64,000 nucleotides of DNA from a virus. The stretch lies in the IMG/VR virus record IMGVR_UViG_3300045988_152944; one strand, 5' to 3'. Below are positions 613 through 64,000 of this stretch, piece after piece. The first letter of the stretch is position 1. Each line of letters starts with the position of its first letter. Under the pieces are notes generated by a model, which saw nothing but the letters and a program-made list of their open reading frames with translations, was not told where the DNA came from and searched no databases. Made by a program: the position numbers and the translations under genes.

Positions 613-3508
613 TCGAATTCACCGAAAACCAGTCGCGTTTTGCAAATTCCGCCTTGCGTTCTTTGGAATATGTTTTTTCCGGCGTCAGGAATCCGACAAT
701 GCGTTGGTAGGTTGTTTTGACGGGTTCTCCACAGATTGGGCAGATGTCGCCATAGAACCCGTGGTTATTTTTACACGCGCTGATGCGGGTGCAGAAGGCG
801 AAATACGGGACTCCAAAGTCGGCCACAGTGTTGAAAAGTTTCCACGCTGTGTCGAAGTCTGAGAGGGGCGCGTCGATATTAATATGCGCAATTGAACCAC
901 CACTGCAAGCCGCGTCGAGAGTTGAGCTCGCTATCATTTTATTATGGAGCGAAGTGTGCGTTGCCAGCGGAATCCATTGGTTACCGTAAAGAGGAAGATC
1001 ATACTCACCATGTTTGTACAAGAGTTTGTCTTTTTCTTGTAAAATAGTCGCGCAGCGTTCAGCGGGCACTTGTTCAATATTGATTTGATAATCTACCTTT
1101 TCTGTTTGGATAAACAGGTCTTTTGCGTCATGAATTGCAGCGAGGATTTCGGTGGCAAATTCAAGACCACTTGGCGTGTAATTCGCGTTACCAAGGGTGT
1201 CGACATATGTGCCGTTTAAGTGCTTTACTGCCTCCCATAAACCCGTGATTCCGATTGTGTTATATTGGGACTTAAGGTGAATGAGATCGAGTGTGTAATT
1301 GGGGAGCAATCCTTTTTCAATATTGCGAGCAATGATTGAACGCACACGGTCAAGCACTCGTACACACAGATAAACCTTCGATTTGAGCAAGTCAAGATAA
1401 TAGGCTTTAATTTGTGCTTTGTTGGTGATGTGGTTTTTCTCGCTCCATACTTTTGTAGCATATGCGATGCGAGCTAAGTTGATTGTGTTAACTTTGACAG
1501 AGCCGACCTCGAGGGCGGTGCCGCCAATGGAATTAAAATACCCGAGATTTTTAACATCACTCACAAGGCGACAACAGTTTGAAAGACTGGTAACATCTTT
1601 ACTTATAAAGAAGTTGCTGTCGGCCCATTTCATATTATGTTTGCAACACCATTTGGCAAAATCTTCATCAACGAATTTGCCGTCGATACGAAGAAGAGCA
1701 TAGGTGAGCACCGGGAACGTCATCATATTGATTGAACGAATTTCACTAACCTTTTCCATAAAGGCTTTTTGATATTCAATGAGTTCGTCGATGTAGTCAA
1801 TCACACACGTTCCGTCAGGATACTCTACGCCGCCGAACAGCGCCATAAGGTATTCACGGTCAAAGATGGAAAAGTTTGTAAATGCACTTTGTGTAACGCG
1901 CAAATACGGCTGATTTAGTTTATAAATAATACGCTGGAATTCTTGGTCGCGGTAATATTCGGGAGAATGGAGATAGTATTTGTTCTCACAATCTTTCTTC
2001 CAGAAATAAAAACTATAAATTAAGAAGTTGGGAAGACCCACAGCGCCGGAAGTTCTATTTGCGCACCAGCTCACCATTTCCCCGACGAAGTCTGTGTAAG
2101 TTGTTAGATGTTGGGGTGGCTGTGCGTTGAAATTGTTAACAAAGAATAATCCTCTATTTACGAGTGGAGTTAGATCATAAGCGAAACAGTTGTGAGTTAA
2201 AACATTCCCTTCAAGTGTAAATGAATGGGTTTTTTTCGCAACTGCGCAATATACATCGTCTATGATACCTGTGTCTTCTACCGATTTTACAATCCAGGCA
2301 CGATGGTGTCGCCCCTTATTTACCGTTGCGAGCCACCGTTCTCTGTGTGTTGGACGAATAAAGAAATTTTCTCTTAGATATTCGCTGGATATTGTTAAAA
2401 CATAAACCCTTCCCATTTCATGTGTGAGATTGCTCACTCTGTCTTGATAACGAATTTTATTTACTGGCATTCCCAACACGCATAAGATATTTTGCGCACA
2501 CTCGAGGTATTCCTTATTAGTAGAACTGAGAGTACATCTCCCCTTTGTGTCGACACATCCATCAGCGGCAAAATAACCCGCAAGCCAGCCATATAAATAA
2601 CCCACCGACTCAGAGAGGTCTGGTAATTTGGTGAAAGCGTTGGGGACGCCCCTGGTTGTTATTTCATACTCAGGGCCTCTTACCTTTGCAGGAGTGAAAT
2701 ACGGAAGTAATGCAATTTTGTCTCCACAAAAGTTAACCCTACGCTGTGGGCCTTTGTCGCCGTCACCAATAAAAAACCCATGTGCCACACCAAAAGGGGA
2801 GGGCTCTACGGCAGCCCATGTTTTGGTTGTATTAAAAGGAATTTTCATACCAGGGGTTAACCGATCGGTTTCAACTTCGGTAGCCATATTACGTTTGTTA
2901 ATAGTAAACCATTTGTGGTTACCAGTTACATAAAACACTTGTTCTGTGTCGTATCTTGTAAGTGTAAGTTTTTTTAGTTCTTGTTTACCAAACCATTGAA
3001 CGGTAGCCTCTTCCCATCCATGGTTTTTATTGAGCACAGATACCGTCGAACCATTTAACTCATCCAACCGACGTAACCCCTGTTTTGTCATGATTCTTGT
3101 GTCACCACTAAAACAATAGGAACGGAACGTGGCCGAACAAAAATCGTGCAAATAAAAACCTCCGTTCCACTCTTCTTCTGCCCATTTTTTGGCTTCTTTA
3201 AGACCGTATTTCTTTTTCATTTCATAAAAAATCTTATGAAAGGCCAATAATTTAGAATGTGGCTTTGACATTTCGTTTTCGAGCGTCGTAATATCTTTAT
3301 GGTCTATATTGGCGTTGCTGTCAATAGAAGCATCGGCAACTGAGGTAGACTTCACAAACTGATCGATGAACTCTGTATAATTAATTTGTTTGTCAGCTAA
3401 GCCATTGAGGTAACACATTTGGTCACCGTATTTTCTATTGAGGTATTTCAATGTAGTGACAAAATCTTTGTCGAGATTGATATTAATATGTAGCTTTCGT
3501 TTTGTCAT
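602..3508 (-). CDS. nrdD: anaerobic (class III) ribonucleoside-triphosphate reductase NrdD, interrupted by an intein
   Basis: The ORF encodes 968 aa. The C-terminus carries a Zn ribbon (CKNNHGFYGDICPICG) and a glycyl-radical motif (YQRIVGFLTP). The extein is about 659 aa once residues 132-440 are removed. Confidence 0.9.
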   Translation of the reverse strand: MTKRKLHININLDKDFVTTLKYLNRKYGDQMCYLNGLADKQINYTEFIDQFVKSTSVADASIDSNANIDHKDITTLENEMSKPHSKLLAFHKIFYEMKKKYGLKEAKKWAEEEWNGGFYLHDFCSATFRSYCFSGDTRIMTKQGLRRLDELNGSTVSVLNKNHGWEEATVQWFGKQELKKLTLTRYDTEQVFYVTGNHKWFTINKRNMATEVETDRLTPGMKIPFNTTKTWAAVEPSPFGVAHGFFIGDGDKGPQRRVNFCGDKIALLPYFTPAKVRGPEYEITTRGVPNAFTKLPDLSESVGYLYGWLAGYFAADGCVDTKGRCTLSSTNKEYLECAQNILCVLGMPVNKIRYQDRVSNLTHEMGRVYVLTISSEYLRENFFIRPTHRERWLATVNKGRHHRAWIVKSVEDTGIIDDVYCAVAKKTHSFTLEGNVLTHNCFAYDLTPLVNRGLFFVNNFNAQPPQHLTTYTDFVGEMVSWCANRTSGAVGLPNFLIYSFYFWKKDCENKYYLHSPEYYRDQEFQRIIYKLNQPYLRVTQSAFTNFSIFDREYLMALFGGVEYPDGTCVIDYIDELIEYQKAFMEKVSEIRSINMMTFPVLTYALLRIDGKFVDEDFAKWCCKHNMKWADSNFFISKDVTSLSNCCRLVSDVKNLGYFNSIGGTALEVGSVKVNTINLARIAYATKVWSEKNHITNKAQIKAYYLDLLKSKVYLCVRVLDRVRSIIARNIEKGLLPNYTLDLIHLKSQYNTIGITGLWEAVKHLNGTYVDTLGNANYTPSGLEFATEILAAIHDAKDLFIQTEKVDYQINIEQVPAERCATILQEKDKLLYKHGEYDLPLYGNQWIPLATHTSLHNKMIASSTLDAACSGGSIAHINIDAPLSDFDTAWKLFNTVADFGVPYFAFCTRISACKNNHGFYGDICPICGEPVKTTYQRIVGFLTPEKTYSKERKAEFAKRDWFSVNSNEN
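2189..3115 (-). mobile_element. intein (309 aa) with a double-motif LAGLIDADG homing endonuclease, inside NrdD
   Basis: Block A is CFSGDTRI (Cys1 codon at 3113-3115) and block B is VTGNHKW. Two LAGLIDADG motifs are present (HGFFIGDGD and LAGYFAADGCV). The C-terminal VLTHN is followed by the +1 Cys (CFAYDL). Confidence 0.85.
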
Positions 3509-3790: not shown

Positions 3791-3867
3791 TGGTCGGGGT
3801 GACACGATTCGAACGTGCGACCTTATGGTCCCAGGCCATACGCGCTCCCAGCTGCGCTACACCCCGA
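3791..3867 (-). tRNA. tRNA-Pro(UGG): tRNA-Pro (anticodon UGG), CCA encoded
   Basis: Manual fold: TCGGGGT acceptor, GTTCGAATC T-loop, anticodon arm TATGG-CCTGGGA-CCATA. Position 33 reads C rather than the near-universal U. Confidence 0.8.
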
Positions 3868-3886
3868 AGAAAAAGGGGCCGCCCCT
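3868..3886 (-). terminator. short GC hairpin plus T5 immediately upstream of tRNA-Pro (weak terminator or processing signal)
   Basis: Minus strand reads AGGGG-CGG-CCCCT followed by TTTTT. The stem is only 5 bp. Confidence 0.3.
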
Positions 3887-3894
3887 ACTTCTGA

Positions 3895-4089
3895 CATCCC
3901 GGATTTTGGGAGCATTTTCTGGGTAGCCCCGTTCAAAAATTTTGTAGTAGAACCGTTTCCAAACTACTACCATACTCTTGTACTTTGAGTATCTTGTTAC
4001 ACTTAACTTACCGCGAATTAGTTAGTAACCCTTGTCCTCTACGACACACACGATTTTTCTCAGTCGGGCGACACCTTGTCGTGTCGCCG
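3895..4089 (-). ncRNA. unclassified structured spacer between tRNA-Leu and tRNA-Pro
   Basis: No ORF and no tRNA fold. Three clean hairpins are present: GTAGTAG/CTACTAC (3944-3970), ATACTC/GAGTAT (3972-3992) and GGCGACAC/GTGTCGCC (4067-4088). Confidence 0.25.
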
Positions 4090-4173
4090 TGGTGCGACCA
4101 GTGAGACTCGAACTCACACATCTGTGATACCAGCTCCTAAGGCTGGCGCGTCTGCCAATTCCGCCACGGTCAC
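4090..4173 (-). tRNA. tRNA-Leu(UAG): tRNA-Leu (anticodon UAG), class II, CCA encoded
   Basis: Manual fold: GTGACCG acceptor, GGCGGAATTGGCAGACGC D arm, anticodon arm CCAGC-CTTAGGA-GCTGG, long variable arm, GTGAG-TTCGAGT-CTCAC T arm. Confidence 0.85.
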
Positions 4174-4179
4174 ATATTG

Positions 4180-4344
4180 TTATTGTTTGCGTTTCCCAAA
4201 CCACATCTCTGCTGCATTTTCAGGCAGCGGAGATGGGGTGGCTGGTGTAATATCTTCGGTATACACCATACTTGATTGTAGTGCTTCTTTAATCTCTTTG
4301 ATTTTCTTAGGGTCTGTAACAATTACAGGCTTATCGTCAATCAT
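4180..4344 (-). CDS. small hypothetical protein (54 aa) embedded in the tRNA cluster
   Basis: ATG at 4344 is preceded by CAGGAGG with a 5-nt spacer. The longer ORF-track model (to 4443) runs through a tRNA and is not credible. Confidence 0.5.
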   Translation of the reverse strand: MIDDKPVIVTDPKKIKEIKEALQSSMVYTEDITPATPSPLPENAAEMWFGKRKQ

Positions 4345-4364
4345 ACGAACCTCCTGAGTTATAG

Positions 4365-4449
4365 TGGCTACCGAGGAGGGACTTGAACCCCCAAGACTTT
4401 CGTCGCCAGAATCAAAATCTGGTGCGTCTACCAATTTCGCCACTCGGCA
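4365..4449 (-). tRNA. class II (Leu-like body, long variable arm) tRNA carrying a UUG (Gln) anticodon
   Basis: Manual fold: TGCCGAG-TG-GCG-AAATTGGTAGA-CGC-A-CCAGA-TTTTGAT-TCTGG-CGACGAAAGTCTT-GGGGG-TTCAAGT-CCCTC-CTCGGTA-G-CCA. All stems pair. The isotype is ambiguous. Confidence 0.75.
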
Positions 4450-4470
4450 TTATCTAAAATATTATTCTAT

Positions 4471-4545
4471 TGGCAGGCCCTCTAAGATTCGAACTCAGAT
4501 CTTACGGTTTTGGAGACCGATATTTTACCATTAAACTAAGAACCT
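4471..4545 (-). tRNA. tRNA-Trp(CCA): tRNA-Trp (anticodon CCA), CCA encoded
   Basis: Manual fold: AGGTTCT acceptor, anticodon loop CTCCAAA, CTGAG-TTCGAAT-CTTAG T arm. There is one T:T mismatch at pair 27-43. Confidence 0.8.
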
Positions 4546-4548
4546 ACG

Positions 4549-4625
4549 TTGCCCAGATGACGGATTTGGGACCGCTCTGTCTACTCTTGGAATAGCCGTG
4601 CTCCGAATTACACTACCACTGGGCA
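4549..4625 (-). pseudogene. degenerate tRNA-like element (possible tRNA pseudogene; anticodon-like CAA)
   Basis: A 7-bp acceptor-like stem (TGCCCAG/CTGGGCA) encloses 62 nt. The anticodon-like arm is CTAT-TCCAAGA-GTAG. There is no canonical T loop (TCCCAAAT), the D arm is poor and no CCA is encoded. Confidence 0.3.
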
Positions 4626-4989
4626 TGAATTAAAGGCTGGATCTTATTCCATTTAACTACTGCTTAACTCCGCCGAGTCTGGTGTTGGACATATCTAGAA
4701 TACCAACGTCGTAGCACCTTATATTTTAAGGGAATAGGCCACTCACCCTCATTGCGCCTCTTGCCGTACCTCGCGCTTTGGACGAATCTTTGTTCGACAG
4801 TCAGCCTCGTTTGCCCAATTAACAATGTTAGAAACAAGACAATCTAACGTAAATATCGGCTTTACCCGATTTGTGTGGTGTAGGGTAAAATCAACCACGC
4901 CCTCCAACATTTACCCAAGCAGGAGTTTTTACAGCACTTTCACTGGTGTCAGCATATCCTAGATTTTAGTGGCGGTATGCAACCACAAG
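4626..4989 (-). ncRNA. unclassified ~365-nt non-coding, hairpin-rich region inside the tRNA cluster
   Basis: No ORF of 60 aa or more and no tRNA fold. Mutually exclusive pairings are possible: TTTACCC at 4861-4867 and 4910-4916 against GGGTAAA at 4883-4889. Confidence 0.3.
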
Positions 4990-5064
4990 TGGCAGGCGTA
5001 AATAGATTTGAACTATTACTAGCAGAGTCAAAGTCTGCTGTGCTGACCATTACACTATACGCCA
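4990..5064 (-). tRNA. tRNA-Gln(UUG): tRNA-Gln (anticodon UUG), class I, CCA encoded
   Basis: Manual fold: TGGCGTA acceptor with unpaired U1:U72 and G73, anticodon arm GCAGA-CTTTGAC-TCTGC, AATAG-TTCAAAT-CTATT T arm. Confidence 0.85.
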
Positions 5065-21298: not shown

Positions 21299-21967
21299 TT
21301 AATAGCCAAGTTCTACAAGACCATCGATCAACGCTTCGAGCTGTTGACGTTGAGACTCGGTTGCCTGACTTGCTTTAAAGTCACTTGTGCCCAAAACTTC
21401 TTGCATAAGGTCAGAGTAACTATTGATGTCTCCTTCCTTTGCGCTCATTTTTTGAAGCTTGTCACCAATTGTAGAGATAAGTTCTTCAATGGGAACCTTT
21501 CTCTCGGTTTCTTCTTTTTTGGCTTTGGCAACTTTCTTGGCTGTTTCCTGTGCAGTAGCGGCTTTCATACCACTGTCTTTTTCTTCTGCTACAATCGCAT
21601 CGCTGATAGCTTGATCCAGTTTTTGGATGTTCCATTCAGGAATGCTTTTCACAATGTGAACAAAGCGACTGCGAGCATGATACGCCGGCGAACCTTTCAA
21701 ATACAACGTTGAAAGGACTTCCTCTCCATCTTCGGTATCGGGTTGGATTTGAGCATAACCGATAATGTCACAAAGGTCGCAAATAGGATCGATAACCCTT
21801 TTGTCACCCCTGGGATAAATTTTCGTATACTCATTACCCTGTGCGTCCTGGAAGACGCGTTCGCCTTCGTGTGCAATGAAGAAAATGGTATAACCAGCGT
21901 TGGTGAGGAGCTTGAGATACTTGTTGATTTCTGCTCCATATTCTTTCCAAAGACCATAACCTCTATT
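21299..21967 (-). CDS. Sak4-like AAA ATPase (AAA_24-type), exon 2
   Basis: The frame stays open upstream of the ORF-track start and reads ...NRGYGLWKEYGAEINKYLKLLTNAGYTIFFIAHEGE..., which continues exon 1. The 5' boundary is uncertain by about 8 nt. Confidence 0.7.
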   Translation of the reverse strand, partial: NRGYGLWKEYGAEINKYLKLLTNAGYTIFFIAHEGERVFQDAQGNEYTKIYPRGDKRVIDPICDLCDIIGYAQIQPDTEDGEEVLSTLYLKGSPAYHARSRFVHIVKSIPEWNIQKLDQAISDAIVAEEKDSGMKAATAQETAKKVAKAKKEETERKVPIEELISTIGDKLQKMSAKEGDINSYSDLMQEVLGTSDFKASQATESQRQQLEALIDGLVELGY

Positions 21968-22287
21968 CGAGTAATCTACTATATTTCTATAATAGTCAGA
22001 CTATATCACCAACTTATTCAGCAGTTCCAAATAAGTTGCGATGCACTTCCAGTAGTAGCTCATCTTCTACTGTACTTCCCTACACTCATCGGGAATAGTC
22101 GTTTGACCTTCCAATTACTTGGCTTGGCACAGGATTGACTTCGGCGGTCATCCGTTCAGTCGTTCCCTGTTAGCACAATTCCTAATCGCCATTTCCTGCG
22201 ATTCCTAATCGTGAATTGTACACCCTTGAGCCTCAAGGTTCACATCGTACACAAGTATTGTCACCAATACAAGGGGCAATAGTGTTT
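21968..22287 (-). mobile_element. ORF-less group I intron in the Sak4-like ATPase gene (boundaries approximate)
   Basis: Minus-strand core elements are AATCCTGTGCCAAGCC...AAGGTCAAACGACTATT (Q/R-like) and GATATAGTCTGA (P7 3' strand, 21996-22007). These are followed by a P9 hairpin CTATTATA-GAAA-TATAGTAG. The architecture is collinear with the intron at 60076-60405. Confidence 0.75.
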
Positions 22288-22641
22288 ACCGTCGTTAATT
22301 CGCGCAACTCCAAAGTTGCCGCACACAAACTCAGAAGCGAGGTCCGCCATACCATCGACAGTGTCGATAATAATAGAAGAATACATCTTCTTTGCCTCAG
22401 CAATGGTTTTGTCGCTCGTCAACTGTTTAACGAAACTCGTCCAATCAGTCCACTTTTTGATCTTAACGTTCTTGACGCCATTGATAGCACCGAGGCCGTT
22501 CTCAAAACAACACACCAACGGTTTGTCAGCCTTGGCAAGGTTTTTAGTCTTGCCAGTGCTGTTGGTGCCGTAAATGAGAATGAGTTTGCCTTCGATACCT
22601 TTAGTTACCTGAGATACTTCAGGGTTGAAAATATCCACCAT
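22288..22641 (-). CDS. Sak4-like AAA ATPase, exon 1
   Basis: AAGGAG RBS, Walker A (IYGTNSTGKT) and Walker B (SSIIIDTVDG). The reading frame hits a stop shortly after entering the intron. Confidence 0.75.
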
Positions 22642-30064: not shown

Positions 30065-30628
30065 TCACTCTATATCGCAGAGGTCATCAGCCTCTTGTTT
30101 TTGGCAGTTGTGTCTCATACGTCCTACCATAAGAAGTTCATTGAGCTCACGCAACCGTTTTTGTATTTTTTCTGCGAGTTTCTCTTGGGTATCAGAACAA
30201 CCTGAGTAATAACTTATGGGGAAATCCGTTCCGCGCTCCCAGGCGTAGTTGTTGGAAAAGACTTCAACTTTTGCACGCCTTAAAAAGTCAGGACCGTGTT
30301 TACTTCTATTGATTACCACAAGCTCAATTGCGTTGTCGTACCCTACCCATTCCCAGTATGTTCCTTTCGGGAATGTTATACAAGCATCAAGGAAATCACT
30401 GATAGTATCGAAATTAAAATATTCTTGCAACGAGCCTACTGAAACAATGTCGTCCTTATTCTCGTCCCAAAACTCTTCAACCGTATATCTTTTCCGTGTC
30501 ATTTGTACTGCGTAGTTGTGTTTAGGACAGTGCATAAAATCGCACGTTTCACAATCACACTTGGTAAAATTGATTGTCCTACCAATGTCAAATTTTTGAT
30601 TTTTTACCGGTTCAAATGCTAATTTCAT
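30065..30628 (-). CDS. hypothetical Cys-rich protein (187 aa)
   Basis: The ORF carries CDCETCDFMHCPKH. No SD lies close to the ATG; the nearest AAGGAGG is about 55 nt upstream, inside a hairpin. Confidence 0.5.
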   Translation of the reverse strand: MKLAFEPVKNQKFDIGRTINFTKCDCETCDFMHCPKHNYAVQMTRKRYTVEEFWDENKDDIVSVGSLQEYFNFDTISDFLDACITFPKGTYWEWVGYDNAIELVVINRSKHGPDFLRRAKVEVFSNNYAWERGTDFPISYYSGCSDTQEKLAEKIQKRLRELNELLMVGRMRHNCQKQEADDLCDIE

Positions 30629-30975
30629 AACGCTTTTGCCAAGGAAACCACAATCCCTTTAGGGTTGTGGAGGAATTGGCAACCTCCTTGTTTGTTTAAT
30701 ACATACACCATTGCTTTTACAGCCTCCTGTATGTTAGAGTGGTTACTCCACGACAAGGTTATTCAAAGGTTTGTCGTATGCAACATTGTTCCTACCCATC
30801 AGAACTGTTTAATCACATACCGCAGAGCGTAAGACTGGAGAGTACATCCTACGGTGCCTATATATTCTTTGATAACGTAGTGCTCGAAACACTTAGTCTG
30901 ATCAACTAGTGGACTTGATTACTCCTCAAGCCCACGCCTATTTATGGACTGGGTAGTTGACATGCAACTCCTTAC
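30629..30975 (-). ncRNA. unclassified ~347-nt highly structured non-coding region
   Basis: No ORF of 60 aa or more. Many hairpins are present, for example 30648-30670 and GGAGG/CCTCC at 30669-30687. A group-I R-like motif GATCAGACTAAGTG lies at 30890-30903, and an 8-codon mini-ORF with an AAGGAG SD lies at 30938-30963. Confidence 0.35.
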
Positions 30976-55736: not shown

Positions 55737-58700
55737 TTAAGAATGTCTAGTGAGATTACGCGCGGCTTGAAGTTGTCGCACAAAGTCATCCATATCAAAC
55801 CCAGGTTGAGCAACCATATGAACATCCAGATGTTCAACATTAAACGATTCGTCGGTTCCGAACCCTGTTGTGTGACTGAACTTGCCGTTGATGTCCACAA
55901 GTTGTTTAATCAGATTAGGAGCAACCTCGCCCAGTTGCCATACGTTGCGCGTAAGGTCGGCGGGAACAACTCCAGACTTCGACGGAAGAGCCGTCAAAGT
56001 ACCTTGAGGAGTAATGATGCCTTCAAGACCATATTGAGGATCGTCATTGACCAGAGAGAGGCCACCGGCGGTAGATAGAGTGCCTGTTGCGTGTGAAGAG
56101 AAGTCGTCTTGTGGGAGTTCACCTTCGCCTGCATATGTTTCATATATTGTCCCGTTAGCATCAATATAGTACACTTTTTTACTTCCAGAATCATAAATAA
56201 AACGATTGCGTCCGCCCTTAATGATGTCTGCGGCTTTATACCCCAGATCTATTTCCTTAGTTTCTAGTGGATCGAACCACAGGTTTTTAGCAGGAGAATA
56301 AAACAAATAAGAAGGACTAGTCGAGGAATAATCTTTAATAAGCGAAGAGTCCACCTTTTTATTTGTGATCACCACTTTTGAGAATTTCTGAGTCGCATTG
56401 GGATTTGCCCACCACCCATACCAACCCTTGCTGGTGGATGAAATTGCACTATTTAACGAATTCCAACTAGAAATAGCCCCAACGCCGCCCGAACTTTCAT
56501 TACTCTTTTCAAACAATTCTAGATACTCTGCCTTATCTTTATTAGACAGGTATTTATTGTTAAAGGCATCTTCAAAAGCGCTGCGATTTGTGTTAAACTG
56601 TTCAATTTCCACATTGTCCAAATTATCATATAGAGCCTTCTTGTTTGACGCCGCATCCTTGGTTCCTTTTGACTGTAACCATCCACCACCTTTGGTGTTG
56701 ATGAAATCGTCATACGCCGTTTTTAAGGCTTTTTTGGCCGCAGCCTTACGATAGCTATCTTCACTCTTATTCCATTCCTCCAGCTCTTCTTTTTGTTGTG
56801 CCTTATCGGCCGACGAAAACAAGGAAAATTGCTTGGGATCGTTTAACCGTTTGGTCCACAATTCTATCAGTTCAGTTGTGTCTGTGATATTACCCGACCA
56901 AGACTGCATAAACTTTTGAGCCTCTTCAAAGGATTTGTCGTCGACAATTTTGGTCATCCAATCTCGTTGACCTTGTAATTCATCAATCAAAGTTTGTAGT
57001 TTGTTGATTTGTTTTTCATTATCCAGTTCTTCGAGTTCTTTTTGCGCATCAGCGATTGCCGCCGTATCTGCCTCATAAACCCAACCAACACCCTCTCTCC
57101 AAACCTTCTTTTTTTCAGTTTGAGCATTTTCGAGTTTAATTTTAGCTTCAATAAGTTTATTTTCGTATTCTCGTTGCTTATTAATTTGCTCTAGGGCCGA
57201 TTTTTGTTCCTCTAATGCTGTCTGCTCTCTTTCCAAACGTTTATCAATATTGGATTGTATCGCAGCCAATACAGTATTATTCCAGCTTTCTTGAACCACC
57301 TGTCTTATATTTTCGGCTCCATTCAAATACGCCTCAACATATGCGTTTTTGTATTTATTTAATATATCGCCATAGGCGGTGATTTGTTCGTCTGAAAAGT
57401 CTTCAGAACTTAACGCCTGATACAAATCGTCTAAAGATGTATTATCCGCGCCAAACCCCATTTTTTCCATCATATCAACAAAACCCTGGCTTTCGTTAGA
57501 TACCATAGCTTTAAAAATCTGGGAACCCGAGGCGTTTCCGCCAGACCAGTCCTCAAATAGAGAACGGGTTTTATTTGCATAATACTCTTTTGTTTTATTA
57601 GCAATACTAAAGACTCCGGCTTCTGTTAATGCACCCGCCTCGTTACCATTTGCTTGAATAATTTGATATAATGAATCCAGCGACACTTTGCCAGTGGAAG
57701 CCATTTCTGAAAAATAATTTATCAATTTTTCACTTTGTTCTTGCAAATCTGAAAATGTGGAATTCAACTCACCAATTGTTAACGAACCAAATTTATCCAC
57801 ACTTTGTTTCACATCGTCCACCGAACGCCCAAGGGCATTAGCAGCCTGATCTAAGAGTTCATTAACCACATTCGTATCCAATTTATAAGTGTTGTTAACA
57901 ATATCAGATAAAGTGAATTGCCCGCCAGCTAAAAGGGATTGTATCGAGGTGGAGGTGTCTCGTTTCATCATTAGTTGAATTAATCTTCTTATTTCCGTCG
58001 TTAACGACAGTCCCGCCTTATCCGCCACTTGTTGTTCAACCCAAGAGATACCCTTGCGTGCTAATTCCATAGAACCCATTGAGGAAACACCGCTGCGTAA
58101 ATACGCTTCTTGCATCGTATAATTCAAGAGTTTTTTTCGCTCGTCTGCGGTCAATTGTTGTCCTTCTTTGGATTGTTCATAGGCGGCCTTTTGCGCTCGA
58201 ATATTGGCGATTTGCAACGCTTGTGCTAACTGTGTCCGGCTTTCGCTGGATTTGTTTTCATCTGCTAAGTAATCATCAATGTTTCTATAAAGCTCGTCTA
58301 ATGAGGCAGCGCCAAATGTTTCGCGTAATTTAACCCCATCTTCTGAAGACAAGTAACTCTTAAAAGTATCCTCAAGAACTTTGTTGTCTACCGATGCTGC
58401 TTTTATAGCTTCCACATTTTCACGAATAGCCTTCACATCATCCGAAAGTAACTTATCTTGCTTGGAAACTTCAACAACGTTTTGAAGCGCGGTTTCTTGA
58501 GCCTTTAAAGTTTCTAAGAGTTTAGACGCCTCTGCCACTCTTTTTTTACGGTTGATTTCTTCTTTGTCAAGCGCATTGGCAATAGGCTCAGCGGCAAAGC
58601 TCCCAATCGTGGAACCTATCATTGCTCCAATTGGCCCCCCAAGTGCTCCTCCAATGGCTGTTAAACCACCCGCAAAAGCACCAGCAACTACTTTAGCCTC

Positions 58701-60075: not shown

Positions 60076-60405
60076 CTATAATTGTGTTACTTTTGAACTT
60101 CGTTACGTTTCAAAAGATTAAGAGAATTTTTATGTCTCAAAATTTTCTTTTATTTTCATAAAAGTTCAGACTATATCTTTGGTAAATAAAAGTTTCCTTT
60201 TATTCCCATCCCCCGCTTCCATTCACTTGAATGTACATAATAGTCTTTGAACCTTCCCCTATTCGGGGCTTGGCTGCTGATTATCCAATTTATATAATTT
60301 TTTAACCATCACACTTAAGCCTATTTCATCTTTATGTTGTGGTTTATATAACTTTAGGAACTTCCAGCAATTCAAGGGATTTATAGTGACCTAGACTTTT
60401 AGTTA
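60076..60405 (-). mobile_element. ORF-less group I intron (330 nt) in the tape measure gene
   Basis: In P1, exon AGUGGCU pairs with intron GGUCACU, giving a U:G wobble at the splice site. Core elements are AATCAGCAGCCAAGCC...AAGGTTCAAAGACTATT and GATATAGTCTGA (60166-60177). P9 is CTTTTAT-GAAA-ATAAAAG. The intron ends in G (..AATTATAG), and splicing restores ..AANEWL-QGYEAQQ.. in frame. Confidence 0.85.

Positions 60406-64000
<3,595 letters not shown>

Follow-up and report, generated by a model that had tools for sequence, protein, structure and literature searches.

What separates the two halves of a recombination ATPase gene on the minus strand of the IMG/VR virus record IMGVR_UViG_3300045988_152944? 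Within the whole stretch of this record that was analyzed (64,000 nt, hereafter the window), the reading frame of a Sak4-like ATPase gene of the AAA_24 type, similar to YorG of SPbeta, is interrupted by positions 21968-22287, an interval that a preliminary description made from the letters alone had taken for a group I intron without an open reading frame (ORF). Intron-less alleles, the predicted RNA structure, and relatives in other phages together indicate that this interval is very probably a functional, ORF-less, self-splicing group I intron of subgroup IA2 that shares its lineage with the SPO1 DNA polymerase intron and interrupts the gene between codons 118 and 119.

The interrupted gene and its empty alleles

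The coding sequence is open on both sides of the interval (Table 1). Exon 1 extends from the ATG at 22641 to GGT at 22290-22288, encodes a Walker A motif (GTNSTGKT) and a Walker B motif (IIIDTVDG), and, if read through without splicing, meets a TGA stop at 22263-22261, directly after "..INDGKHYCPLYW". The downstream ORF can be extended in frame, in the upstream direction, as far as 22000; it codes for NRGYGLWKEY...TIFFIAHEGE... from 21967 and stops at 21299; the preliminary observations that exon 1 runs into a stop and that the downstream frame supplies the missing part were thus both reproduced. The Pfam AAA_24 profile (PF13479) was split cleanly between the exons, and the joined protein matched it from 4 to 195 (143.8 bits), giving a complete domain with Walker A and B. 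The spliced protein was placed in PHROG 124, 'Sak4-like ssDNA annealing protein' (E = 2.4e-44), and its nearest cultured homolog was SPbeta YorG (38 % identity across 99 % of the length), in agreement with the earlier designation of a split Sak4-like AAA_24 ATPase. In all of the listed best-matching cultured phages, the YorG-type gene was uninterrupted. The neighborhood is also SPbeta-like: the public contigs L001 and L002 (public sequences are cited here by L numbers), which have the same gene order as the window, carry YorF-like, Sak4-like, YorH-like, DnaB, PD-(D/E)XK, and ThyX genes in succession.

The same two contigs, ∼95 % identical to the window at the DNA level, have exactly 320 nt fewer and encode an uninterrupted 340-aa protein; the extra 320 nt of the window correspond to gene positions 355-674, or window positions 22287-21968, precisely the interval that had been put forward as the intron. 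The empty alleles L058-L060 showed the same exact 320-nt absence. Excision of the 320 nt restored the frame and gave gap-free alignments, at both the DNA and protein levels, with the intron-less alleles and with the full-length homologs aligned. A search with the joined protein recovered >100 uninterrupted homologs of ∼340 aa, with identities up to 97 %, and the junction INDG/NRGYGLW (slashes mark splice or insertion sites throughout) was gap-free in every full-length homolog aligned.

These homologs bear on the notion that the gene is naturally split, with two separately translated polypeptides that assemble while the spacer stays in the RNA. Public gene calls do list the exon-1 and exon-2 fragments as separate proteins, but those 'fragments' begin at arbitrary internal Met codons and the homologs are single 340-aa chains rather than separate halves. 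Moreover, exon 2 begins without a start codon, the first listed in-frame start (TTG at 21706) would lose nearly half of the second AAA_24 half, and the spacer is a covarying ribozyme, as described below; a naturally split gene is accordingly regarded as extremely improbable. Next to no probability is given to the insert being some other small mobile element, such as a miniature inverted-repeat transposable element or an insertion sequence remnant, whose likeness to an intron is accidental. Reading of the sequence showed no terminal inverted repeats, the empty alleles align without gaps to either side of the 320 nt and there is thus no target-site duplication, and the insert has fully collinear homology with a proven ribozyme and a covarying, pseudoknotted P3/P7 core.

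The position of the putative group I intron can be given to the nucleotide. At the DNA level the boundary slides by 0-2 nt, as AA follows both junctions, and the zero position was adopted because, of the three DNA-equivalent placements, it alone complies with the U rule as well as the G rule. The last base of the 5' exon is then U22288, in a U·G pair with guide G22277 (P1 = GGU/AA with UUGCC), and the Rfam alignment independently sets U22288 on the splice-site U of the model. At the other end the intron reads ...CUCG, with a terminal guanosine (omega-G). A P10 of 5 bp is also present, in which AAUAG of exon 2 is fully paired with the CUAUU that adjoins the P1 guide on its 5' side. The guide pairing is the same in all intron-bearing alleles, all of which keep GGU, whereas closely related empty alleles have GGG or GGA. 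The splice sites are accordingly assigned from sequence, with the 5' exon ending at U22288 and the intron at G21968; the predicted junction, ...INDG/NRGYGLW..., is that of the in-frame model ..GVARINDG/NRGYGLW.. in the preliminary description, which the empty alleles and the homolog alignment both bear out.

On this assignment, the pre-mRNA would fold into the P1-P10 structure, and an external guanosine bound in P7 would attack after U22288, at the U·G pair of P1. The 3'-OH thus freed on exon 1 would in turn attack just past the terminal G21968, exon 2 being aligned by P10. The expected product is an mRNA for the uninterrupted 340-aa protein (...GVARINDG-NRGYGLW...), and unspliced RNA would yield merely a truncated product of 126 aa.

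Structure, class, and lineage of the ribozyme

The structure was derived from an alignment of 12 ORF-trimmed relatives, comprising the window copy, five other Sak4-site variants, SPO1, Enterocloster phage CB457P1, and four IMG/VR introns from other contexts; intron position n equals window coordinate 22288 - n. The formal pair count used the MAFFT alignment and covered 39 pairs of P2, P3, P3.2, P3.2a, P4, P6, and P7 (P7 written as a pseudoknot), whereas P5, P5a, P6a, P7.1, P8, and P9, for which MAFFT was unreliable among distant sequences, were judged from closer copies. Across the 39 pairs and 12 sequences, 97.4 % of cells were paired, as opposed to 29-39 % with slid partners; both-side changes were found in 24 of the 39 pairs; and the covariation score was 0.545 vs. 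0.159 after shuffling, with none of 500 shuffles reaching the observed values. Compensatory versions of P7.2, P8, and P9 occur among the closer copies, those of P7.2 being CAGCGG/CCGUUG in L007 and CGGUGG/CCACCG in L034. The core helices P3-P9, including the P3/P7 pseudoknot, are thus those of a group I intron. The motifs singled out in the preliminary description, namely AATCCTGTGCCAAGCC, AAGGTCAAACGACTATT, GATATAGTCTGA (21996-22007), and the hairpin CTATTATA-GAAA-TATAGTAG, all lie on the minus strand where they had been placed.

Table 1. Exons, splicing signals, and predicted RNA elements of the interrupted gene. Coordinates refer to the window; paired intron positions are separated by a slash.
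Feature	Window position	Strand	Intron position	Support or remark
Putative group I intron, 320 nt, no ORF, assigned to the IA2 type and SPO1-polymerase-intron lineage	21968..22287	-		Missing exactly from L001, L002, L058-L060; covariation
Exon 1, 118 codons, Walker A + B	22288..22641	-		AAA_24 profile 4-97; equals positions 1-354 of the intron-less L001 allele
Exon 2, 222 codons + stop	21299..21967	-		AAA_24 profile 98-195; first bases AAUAG (21967-21963) form the P10 strand
Internal guide sequence	22275..22282	-		UUGCC (22279-22275) pairs in P1; CUAUU (22282-22278) pairs with exon-2 AAUAG in P10
P2 hairpin GUAUUG-GUGA-CAAUAC	22255..22270	-	18-23/28-33	Both-side changes in all 6 pairs, 12 sequences
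P3 5' strand CGAUGUG	22241..22247	-	P3: 41-47/243-249	Paired 7/7 in 12/12 sequences, 8 sequence versions
Peripheral domain between P3 and J3/4	22173..22238	-		In SPO1, Enterocloster phage CB457P1, L034, L037, L039, L050
P3.1 hairpin	22238-22224	-	50-55/59-64	Helix name is our own label
P3.2 helix	22221-22214 with 22180-22173	-	67-74/108-115	Both-side changes in 5/8 pairs; own label
P3.2a hairpin inside P3.2, conserved loop AGGAAAUG		-	85-90/99-104	
P4-P5-P5a-P6 domain	22106..22170	-		P4 invariant; P5 compensatory change in L009
P4		-	118-122/155-159	
P5		-	127-130/148-151	
P6		-	160-161/181-182	
P6a CCAA-GUAA-UUGG, GNRA tetraloop	22122-22111	-	166-169/174-177	Position of the HNH endonuclease ORF in other alleles
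P7 5' strand GACUA, after J6/7 CAAAC	22096..22100	-	P7: 188-192/285-289	Compensating pair GGUCA/UGACC in Enterocloster
P7.1 UUCCC...GGGAA, GUA linker, P7.2 CAGUAG...CUACUG	22050..22095	-	P7.1: 193-197/208-212, then GUA linker; P7.2: 216-221/233-238	IA2 hallmark
P3 3' strand UGCAUCG	22039..22045	-		Core pseudoknot together with P7
P8 hairpin AACUUAUU...AAUAAGUU	22011..22037	-	251-258/270-277	Compensatory versions in L009, SPO1, L039
J8/7 GGUGAUA + P7 3' strand UAGUC	21999..22010	-		
P9 hairpin CUAUUAUA-GAAA-UAUAGUAG	21976..21995	-	293-300/305-312	CUGUUAUA/UAUAAUAG in L009, UCCUAUUA/UAGUAGGG in L007
Terminal guanosine (omega-G), last base of the intron	21968..21968	-	320	All intron-bearing alleles end ...G/AAUAGAGG

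Three other pairings were considered and dropped. The P3 of the Rfam alignment (intron 109-116 with 243-250) has mismatches, and the alternative 111-116/241-246 was given up in favor of 41-47/243-249, which has four both-side-changed pairs across lineages in addition to its complete pairing in the 12 sequences; a pairing GUGAA/UUCAC (45-49/73-77) is broken in L007, which nevertheless keeps 72-74/108-110 through compensatory changes. A near-repeat, GUGAAC/GUGCUAAC (window 22238-22243 and 22169-22176; intron 45-50 and 112-119), brackets the P3.1-P3.2 domain, and its alternative pairing, 111-116/241-246, competes with the P3 favored by covariation. The near-repeat looks like an ancient insertion scar or a possible folding switch; in the latter case, the competing pairing might conceivably tune expression of the recombinase.

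Subgroup IA2 is recognized by P7.1 and P7.2 joined by GUA and situated between P7 and P3' (PMC3428280). As this arrangement is present (UUCCC...GGGAA-GUA-CAGUAG...CUACUG), the window intron is assigned to IA2 on the predicted fold. Its lineage was sought among cultured phages, in which a blastn search with the gene found no match to the exons. The intron matched the DNA polymerase introns of SPO1-like phages (73-75 % over 132 nt of the P3.1-P7 region), Enterocloster phages (84 % over 90 nt of the P3.1-P3.2 domain), and, in short stretches, Clostridium phages and Streptococcus phage Str-PAP-1. In SPO1 the matching segment falls within gene 31 ("contains intron"), adjoining the homing endonuclease gp31.2, and the SPO1 intron is a documented self-splicing ribozyme (Goodrich-Blair 1990, as cited; positive control in PMC11878797). 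A profile built from six non-Sak4 relatives, from other genes and phages, matched window positions 22281-21994 with E = 1.4e-42, which, together with the covarying structure, upholds the original call of an ORF-less group I intron. The homology thus extends beyond the universal core, and the P3.1-P3.2 domain with its AGGAAAUG loop is shared, placing the window intron by sequence similarity in the lineage of the SPO1 DNA polymerase intron. The SPO1-type lineage would now extend from Bacillus phages to uncultured SPbeta-like phages of the gut.

A 16-mer search of viral contigs gave 42 matches, about two thirds of which had nothing past the 16-18-nt seed or were unrelated introns, and a match was kept only if core motifs followed downstream or Sak4 exons were present. 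Two of the contigs matched by a 16-mer, L016 (1845-2131, minus strand) and L049 (746-1032, plus strand), contain another group I intron (Rfam 83.5 bits) that differs from the matched one. L037 (IMGVR_UViG_2940228231_000002), whose intron is of the SPO1-type lineage, also carries a ROOL RNA (RF03087, 299 bits; 4180-4765) within a tRNA cluster.

Several points weigh against a functional intron at this site. Splicing is deduced from sequence rather than RNA, an ORF-less intron could in principle be decaying, P5a, P7.1, and P9 are backed by few informative sequences, and the names of the P3.1-P3.2 helices are self-assigned. The covariance-model check proposed in the preliminary description had a divided outcome: in a permissive local search of the sub-region, Rfam model RF00028 aligned end to end at 21977-22297 (minus strand; 35.3 bits, E = 2.8e-7), but the score remained below the gathering score of 50 bits, and the curated scan of the whole window overlooks the Sak4 intron. 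The low score arises because a ∼70-nt P3.1-P3.2 domain lies between P3 and J3/4, in addition to the P7.1/P7.2 insertions. Since RF00028 is also below gathering for the ORF-carrying SPO1 intron and the ORF-less Enterocloster intron (L006 and L005 among the contigs examined), the shortfall is probably a limit of the model and not of the sequence; occurrence of the domain in SPO1, Enterocloster, and four further introns (Table 1) makes it a trait of the lineage, not a peculiarity of the window copy. All members tried fell short, and curated RF00028 scans, which under-detect the SPO1-type lineage, will systematically miss such introns.

The sub-threshold score and the lack of an endonuclease ORF would also suit a decayed, splicing-dead remnant, with the Sak4-like gene a pseudogene in this phage. 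However, all core helices are intact, P1, P10, and the terminal G are present, and the intron survives unchanged, or at 99 % identity, in phages with flanks as divergent as ∼77 % identity. The L009 copy (87-90 % identity) retains all helices by compensatory changes, the P6a loop varies within the GNRA class only (GUAA, GAAA, GCAA), both exons are open, and differences from the empty alleles are mostly synonymous. A dead remnant is thus judged very unlikely, and a functional self-splicing intron remains by far the better account.

The window contains another group I intron, in the TMP gene (60147-60439, minus strand; Rfam 85.9 bits), which is its sole RF00028 match at the gathering threshold. 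The preliminary description had presented the two as related copies that suggest spread within the genome. The likeness is real in part: both are group I, ORF-less, and on the same strand of one genome, and they have the collinear motifs GCCAAGCC, GACTAT, and GATATAGTCTGA in common. The shared strings (GCCAAG, GACTAT, and GATATAGTCTG), however, are core motifs that also occur in the SPO1 polymerase intron and many unrelated phage introns. Direct blastn yielded no more than two short alignments, of 27 nt (85 %) and 19 nt (84 %), and a whole-window search with the Sak4 intron did not recover the TMP intron at E ≤ 1. Their global alignment score was 23, inside the shuffled range (15.3 ± 4.0, maximum 28.5), while SPO1, Enterocloster, L034, and others scored 55-108 against the Sak4 intron, and the Sak4/SPO1-lineage profile gave no match to the TMP intron even at E ≤ 10 with filters off. 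In its Rfam alignment, the TMP intron has P3 abutting J3/4 and P4 without a P3.1-P3.2 domain, one short insert between P7 and P3' instead of P7.1 and P7.2, and a large P5 insertion. A '71 % mean column identity' from a MAFFT pairwise alignment of the two was rejected as uninformative, since identity is inflated when AT-rich RNAs are forced into a global alignment. The actual relatives of the Sak4 intron are same-site copies in related phages and the polymerase-gene introns of SPO1-like and Enterocloster phages. On these sequence comparisons the two introns are placed in different lineages; intragenomic spread is not supported, and derivation of one intron from the other within this genome is considered highly improbable.

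Allele states and signs of movement

Three allele states were found among the public contigs at one position, ...GGT/AATAGAGG.... The empty state is represented by L001, L002, L058-L060, and L065. The bare 320-nt intron of the window recurs in L017 and L023 (100 % identical), L032 (98.75 %), and L046 (99.4 %), and in a diverged 309-nt form in L009-L011. An intron of ∼1020 nt with an HNH ORF is present in L003, L004, L012-L015, L020, L022, L030, L031, L035, and L052, and a distant copy bearing a homing endonuclease gene (HEG), whose host protein is merely 53 % identical, in L007 and L008. The IMG/VR loci of this gene (n = 14) comprised four empty, four bare-intron, and six HEG-bearing alleles.

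The window copy has no homing endonuclease of its own, and at the HEG position there is the 12-nt hairpin CCAAGUAAUUGG. Sister alleles have a ∼712-nt insert in place of this P6a hairpin, with an HNH ORF of ∼250-260 aa (PF13391 HNH_2 and PF24308 domains; matches to PHROG HNH families); the insert is flanked by a stem of its own (UUGCAAAUU/AAUUUGCAA), and the ORF continues through P6', P7, and P7.1 to a TAG in P7.2. The endonucleases of L012 and L007 are 40 % identical (E = 2e-58) and occupy the same loop, suggesting that the endonuclease-bearing state is old. Among the window, L009, and L032, the P6a tetraloop varies between GUAA, GAAA, and GCAA; this confinement to the GNRA class and the existence of a form with 87-90 % identity, depending on the measure, argue that the bare form is not a fresh deletion. 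In HEG-bearing L020 and L030, inserted at the same site, the ribozyme flanks are 100 % identical to the window.

The gene calls now found in public databases are broken pieces of this gene, or an endonuclease-exon chimera read through TAG; the two fragments in the window belong together as a single 340-aa Sak4/YorG-like protein. Chimeras of this kind are P0031 and P0036 (504 aa; L003 1125-2639 and L004 178-1692), in which the HNH ORF is fused to the 3' portion of the intron and to exon 2, with two in-frame TAG codons read as Q. Stop-codon recoding (TAG=Q), which these proteins prompted, was rejected: no suppressor tRNA was found in the window, and the sister contigs were called with the standard code. 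The 504-aa chimeras are apparently an artefact of a gene caller that chose the TAG=Q code on short contigs, L012-L015 having been called with the standard one. The five tRNA genes of the window are clustered at 3791-5064 (minus strand) and comprise Pro-UGG, Leu-UAG, two Gln-UUG, and Trp-CCA.

A different HNH-related element, a HEARO RNA (HNH endonuclease-associated RNA and ORF; RF02033, 133 bits), lies at 30739-30961 (minus strand); the ORF just downstream of it (30065-30628, 187 aa) had no Pfam match. An 88.7 % copy of the HEARO occupies another relative position in sister contig L023 (1356-1626), so this element may be mobile.

The intron is more conserved than its surroundings, being 98.75-100 % identical where the flanks are ∼77 % (L032, L046) or ∼95-96 % (L017, L020, L023, L030) identical. 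Over the first 30 nt of exon 2, every close intron-bearing allele matches the window at 100 % (L007 at 90 %); further out, identity falls to 0.57-0.87 in later bins of the most diverged intron-bearing alleles. The empty allele L001 shows the opposite profile, with 80 % in the same 30-nt bin and 97-100 % elsewhere. Empty and intron-bearing alleles have 5-7 differences within -1 to +19 of the site, nearly all of them synonymous: the former read GACGG(G/A)/AA(C/T)AG(G/T)GGTTACGGCTTG, condensed as GACGGR/AAYAGKGGTTACGGCTTG, and the latter GACGGT/AATAGAGGTTATGGTCTT. Presence/absence polymorphism, an intron more conserved than its flanks, and exon flanks of the co-converted type are the population pattern of a mobile intron. 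An exon-2 footprint of this form is what would be expected from co-conversion in the course of homing, or from selection of empty sites that resist cleavage, and either may apply to the present enzyme.

Empty, bare-intron, and endonuclease-bearing alleles co-exist among ∼95 % identical phages, many from one metagenome (IMG 3300045988). In this population of related gut phages (Firmicutes-type, SPbeta-like), a single homing site occurs in three allelic states, of which the window intron represents one. The bare copy should be unable to home alone and most likely spreads or persists via recombination in co-infection, possibly aided in trans by the endonuclease of HEG-bearing relatives. A live homing cycle, in which co-infecting relatives would supply in trans the HNH enzyme that mobilises the bare intron and the HEG would serve as a weapon of inter-phage competition, is a tentative and rather unlikely extension; use of an endonuclease in phage competition has been shown for PhiPA3 (PMC11620839). 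In any case, the three allele states and the sharp exon-2 footprint offer a natural series for gain and loss of intron and endonuclease.

Comparison with known phage introns

A published table of >100 phage introns lists polymerase, ribonucleotide reductase (RNR), terminase, TMP, capsid, tRNA, and RecA-like hosts and has no match for "Sak4", "annealing", "recombinase", or "ATP-binding" (PMC11878797), and no report combining "group I intron" and "Sak4" came up in a full-text literature search; the Sak4-type recombination ATPase thus appears to be a new host gene. The kind of element and its mechanism are well known, and the understanding of how such introns work is unchanged.

The gene 31 intron of SPO1 and its kin (SP82, phi-e, CampHawk, Goe2...) has the same order of helices, including P3.1-P3.2 and P7.1/P7.2, and the same GAUAUAGUC motif. 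It carries the HNH nicking endonuclease I-HmuI, and relatives of the window intron likewise bear an HNH endonuclease, although the window copy itself has no ORF. The SPO1 host gene is a family-A DNA polymerase rather than a Sak4/YorG-like ATPase, and the site of the ORF differs, being the P8 loop in SPO1 and P6a, running through P7 into P7.2, in the HEG-bearing Sak4 alleles. Furthermore, the 3' end of the SPO1 intron has extra helices beyond P9, unlike the window copy. The intron of Enterocloster phages CB457P1/P2 and CB473P1-3, gut Firmicutes phages of ∼100 kb, is ORF-less and has the same architecture; its host is a DNA polymerase III alpha-like gene, with the PHP and DNA_pol3_alpha domains split at profile positions 103/138, its P7 is GGUCA/UGACC, and its P5, P6, and P9 peripheries are unlike those of the window. 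In CB457P1 (L005 ∼2958-3391; OP172753.1, record ∼56903-57336) this ORF-less intron is unannotated, and the gene halves are listed as the 'hypothetical proteins' CB457P1_00063 and CB457P1_00062.

More broadly, the IA2 introns of phages (T4 td/nrdB/sunY, Twort orf142, and the Pf-WMP3 polymerase) have in common with the window intron P7.1-GUA-P7.2, ACGACUAU at J6/7-P7, and GAUAUAGUC at J8/7-P7. The T4 td and Twort introns are not known to have a domain between P3 and J3/4. The sister-allele HEG is Pf-WMP3-like in that it begins in P6a and overlaps P6, P7, P7.1, and P7.2. At the level of the host gene, a parallel is the intron in the RecA-like gene of Bacillus phage 0305phi8-36 (PMC11878797, Supplementary Table S1), likewise a mobile intron in a phage recombinase-type ATPase, with a full RecA-like protein as its host vs. 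the core-only Sak4/AAA_24 ATPase of the window.

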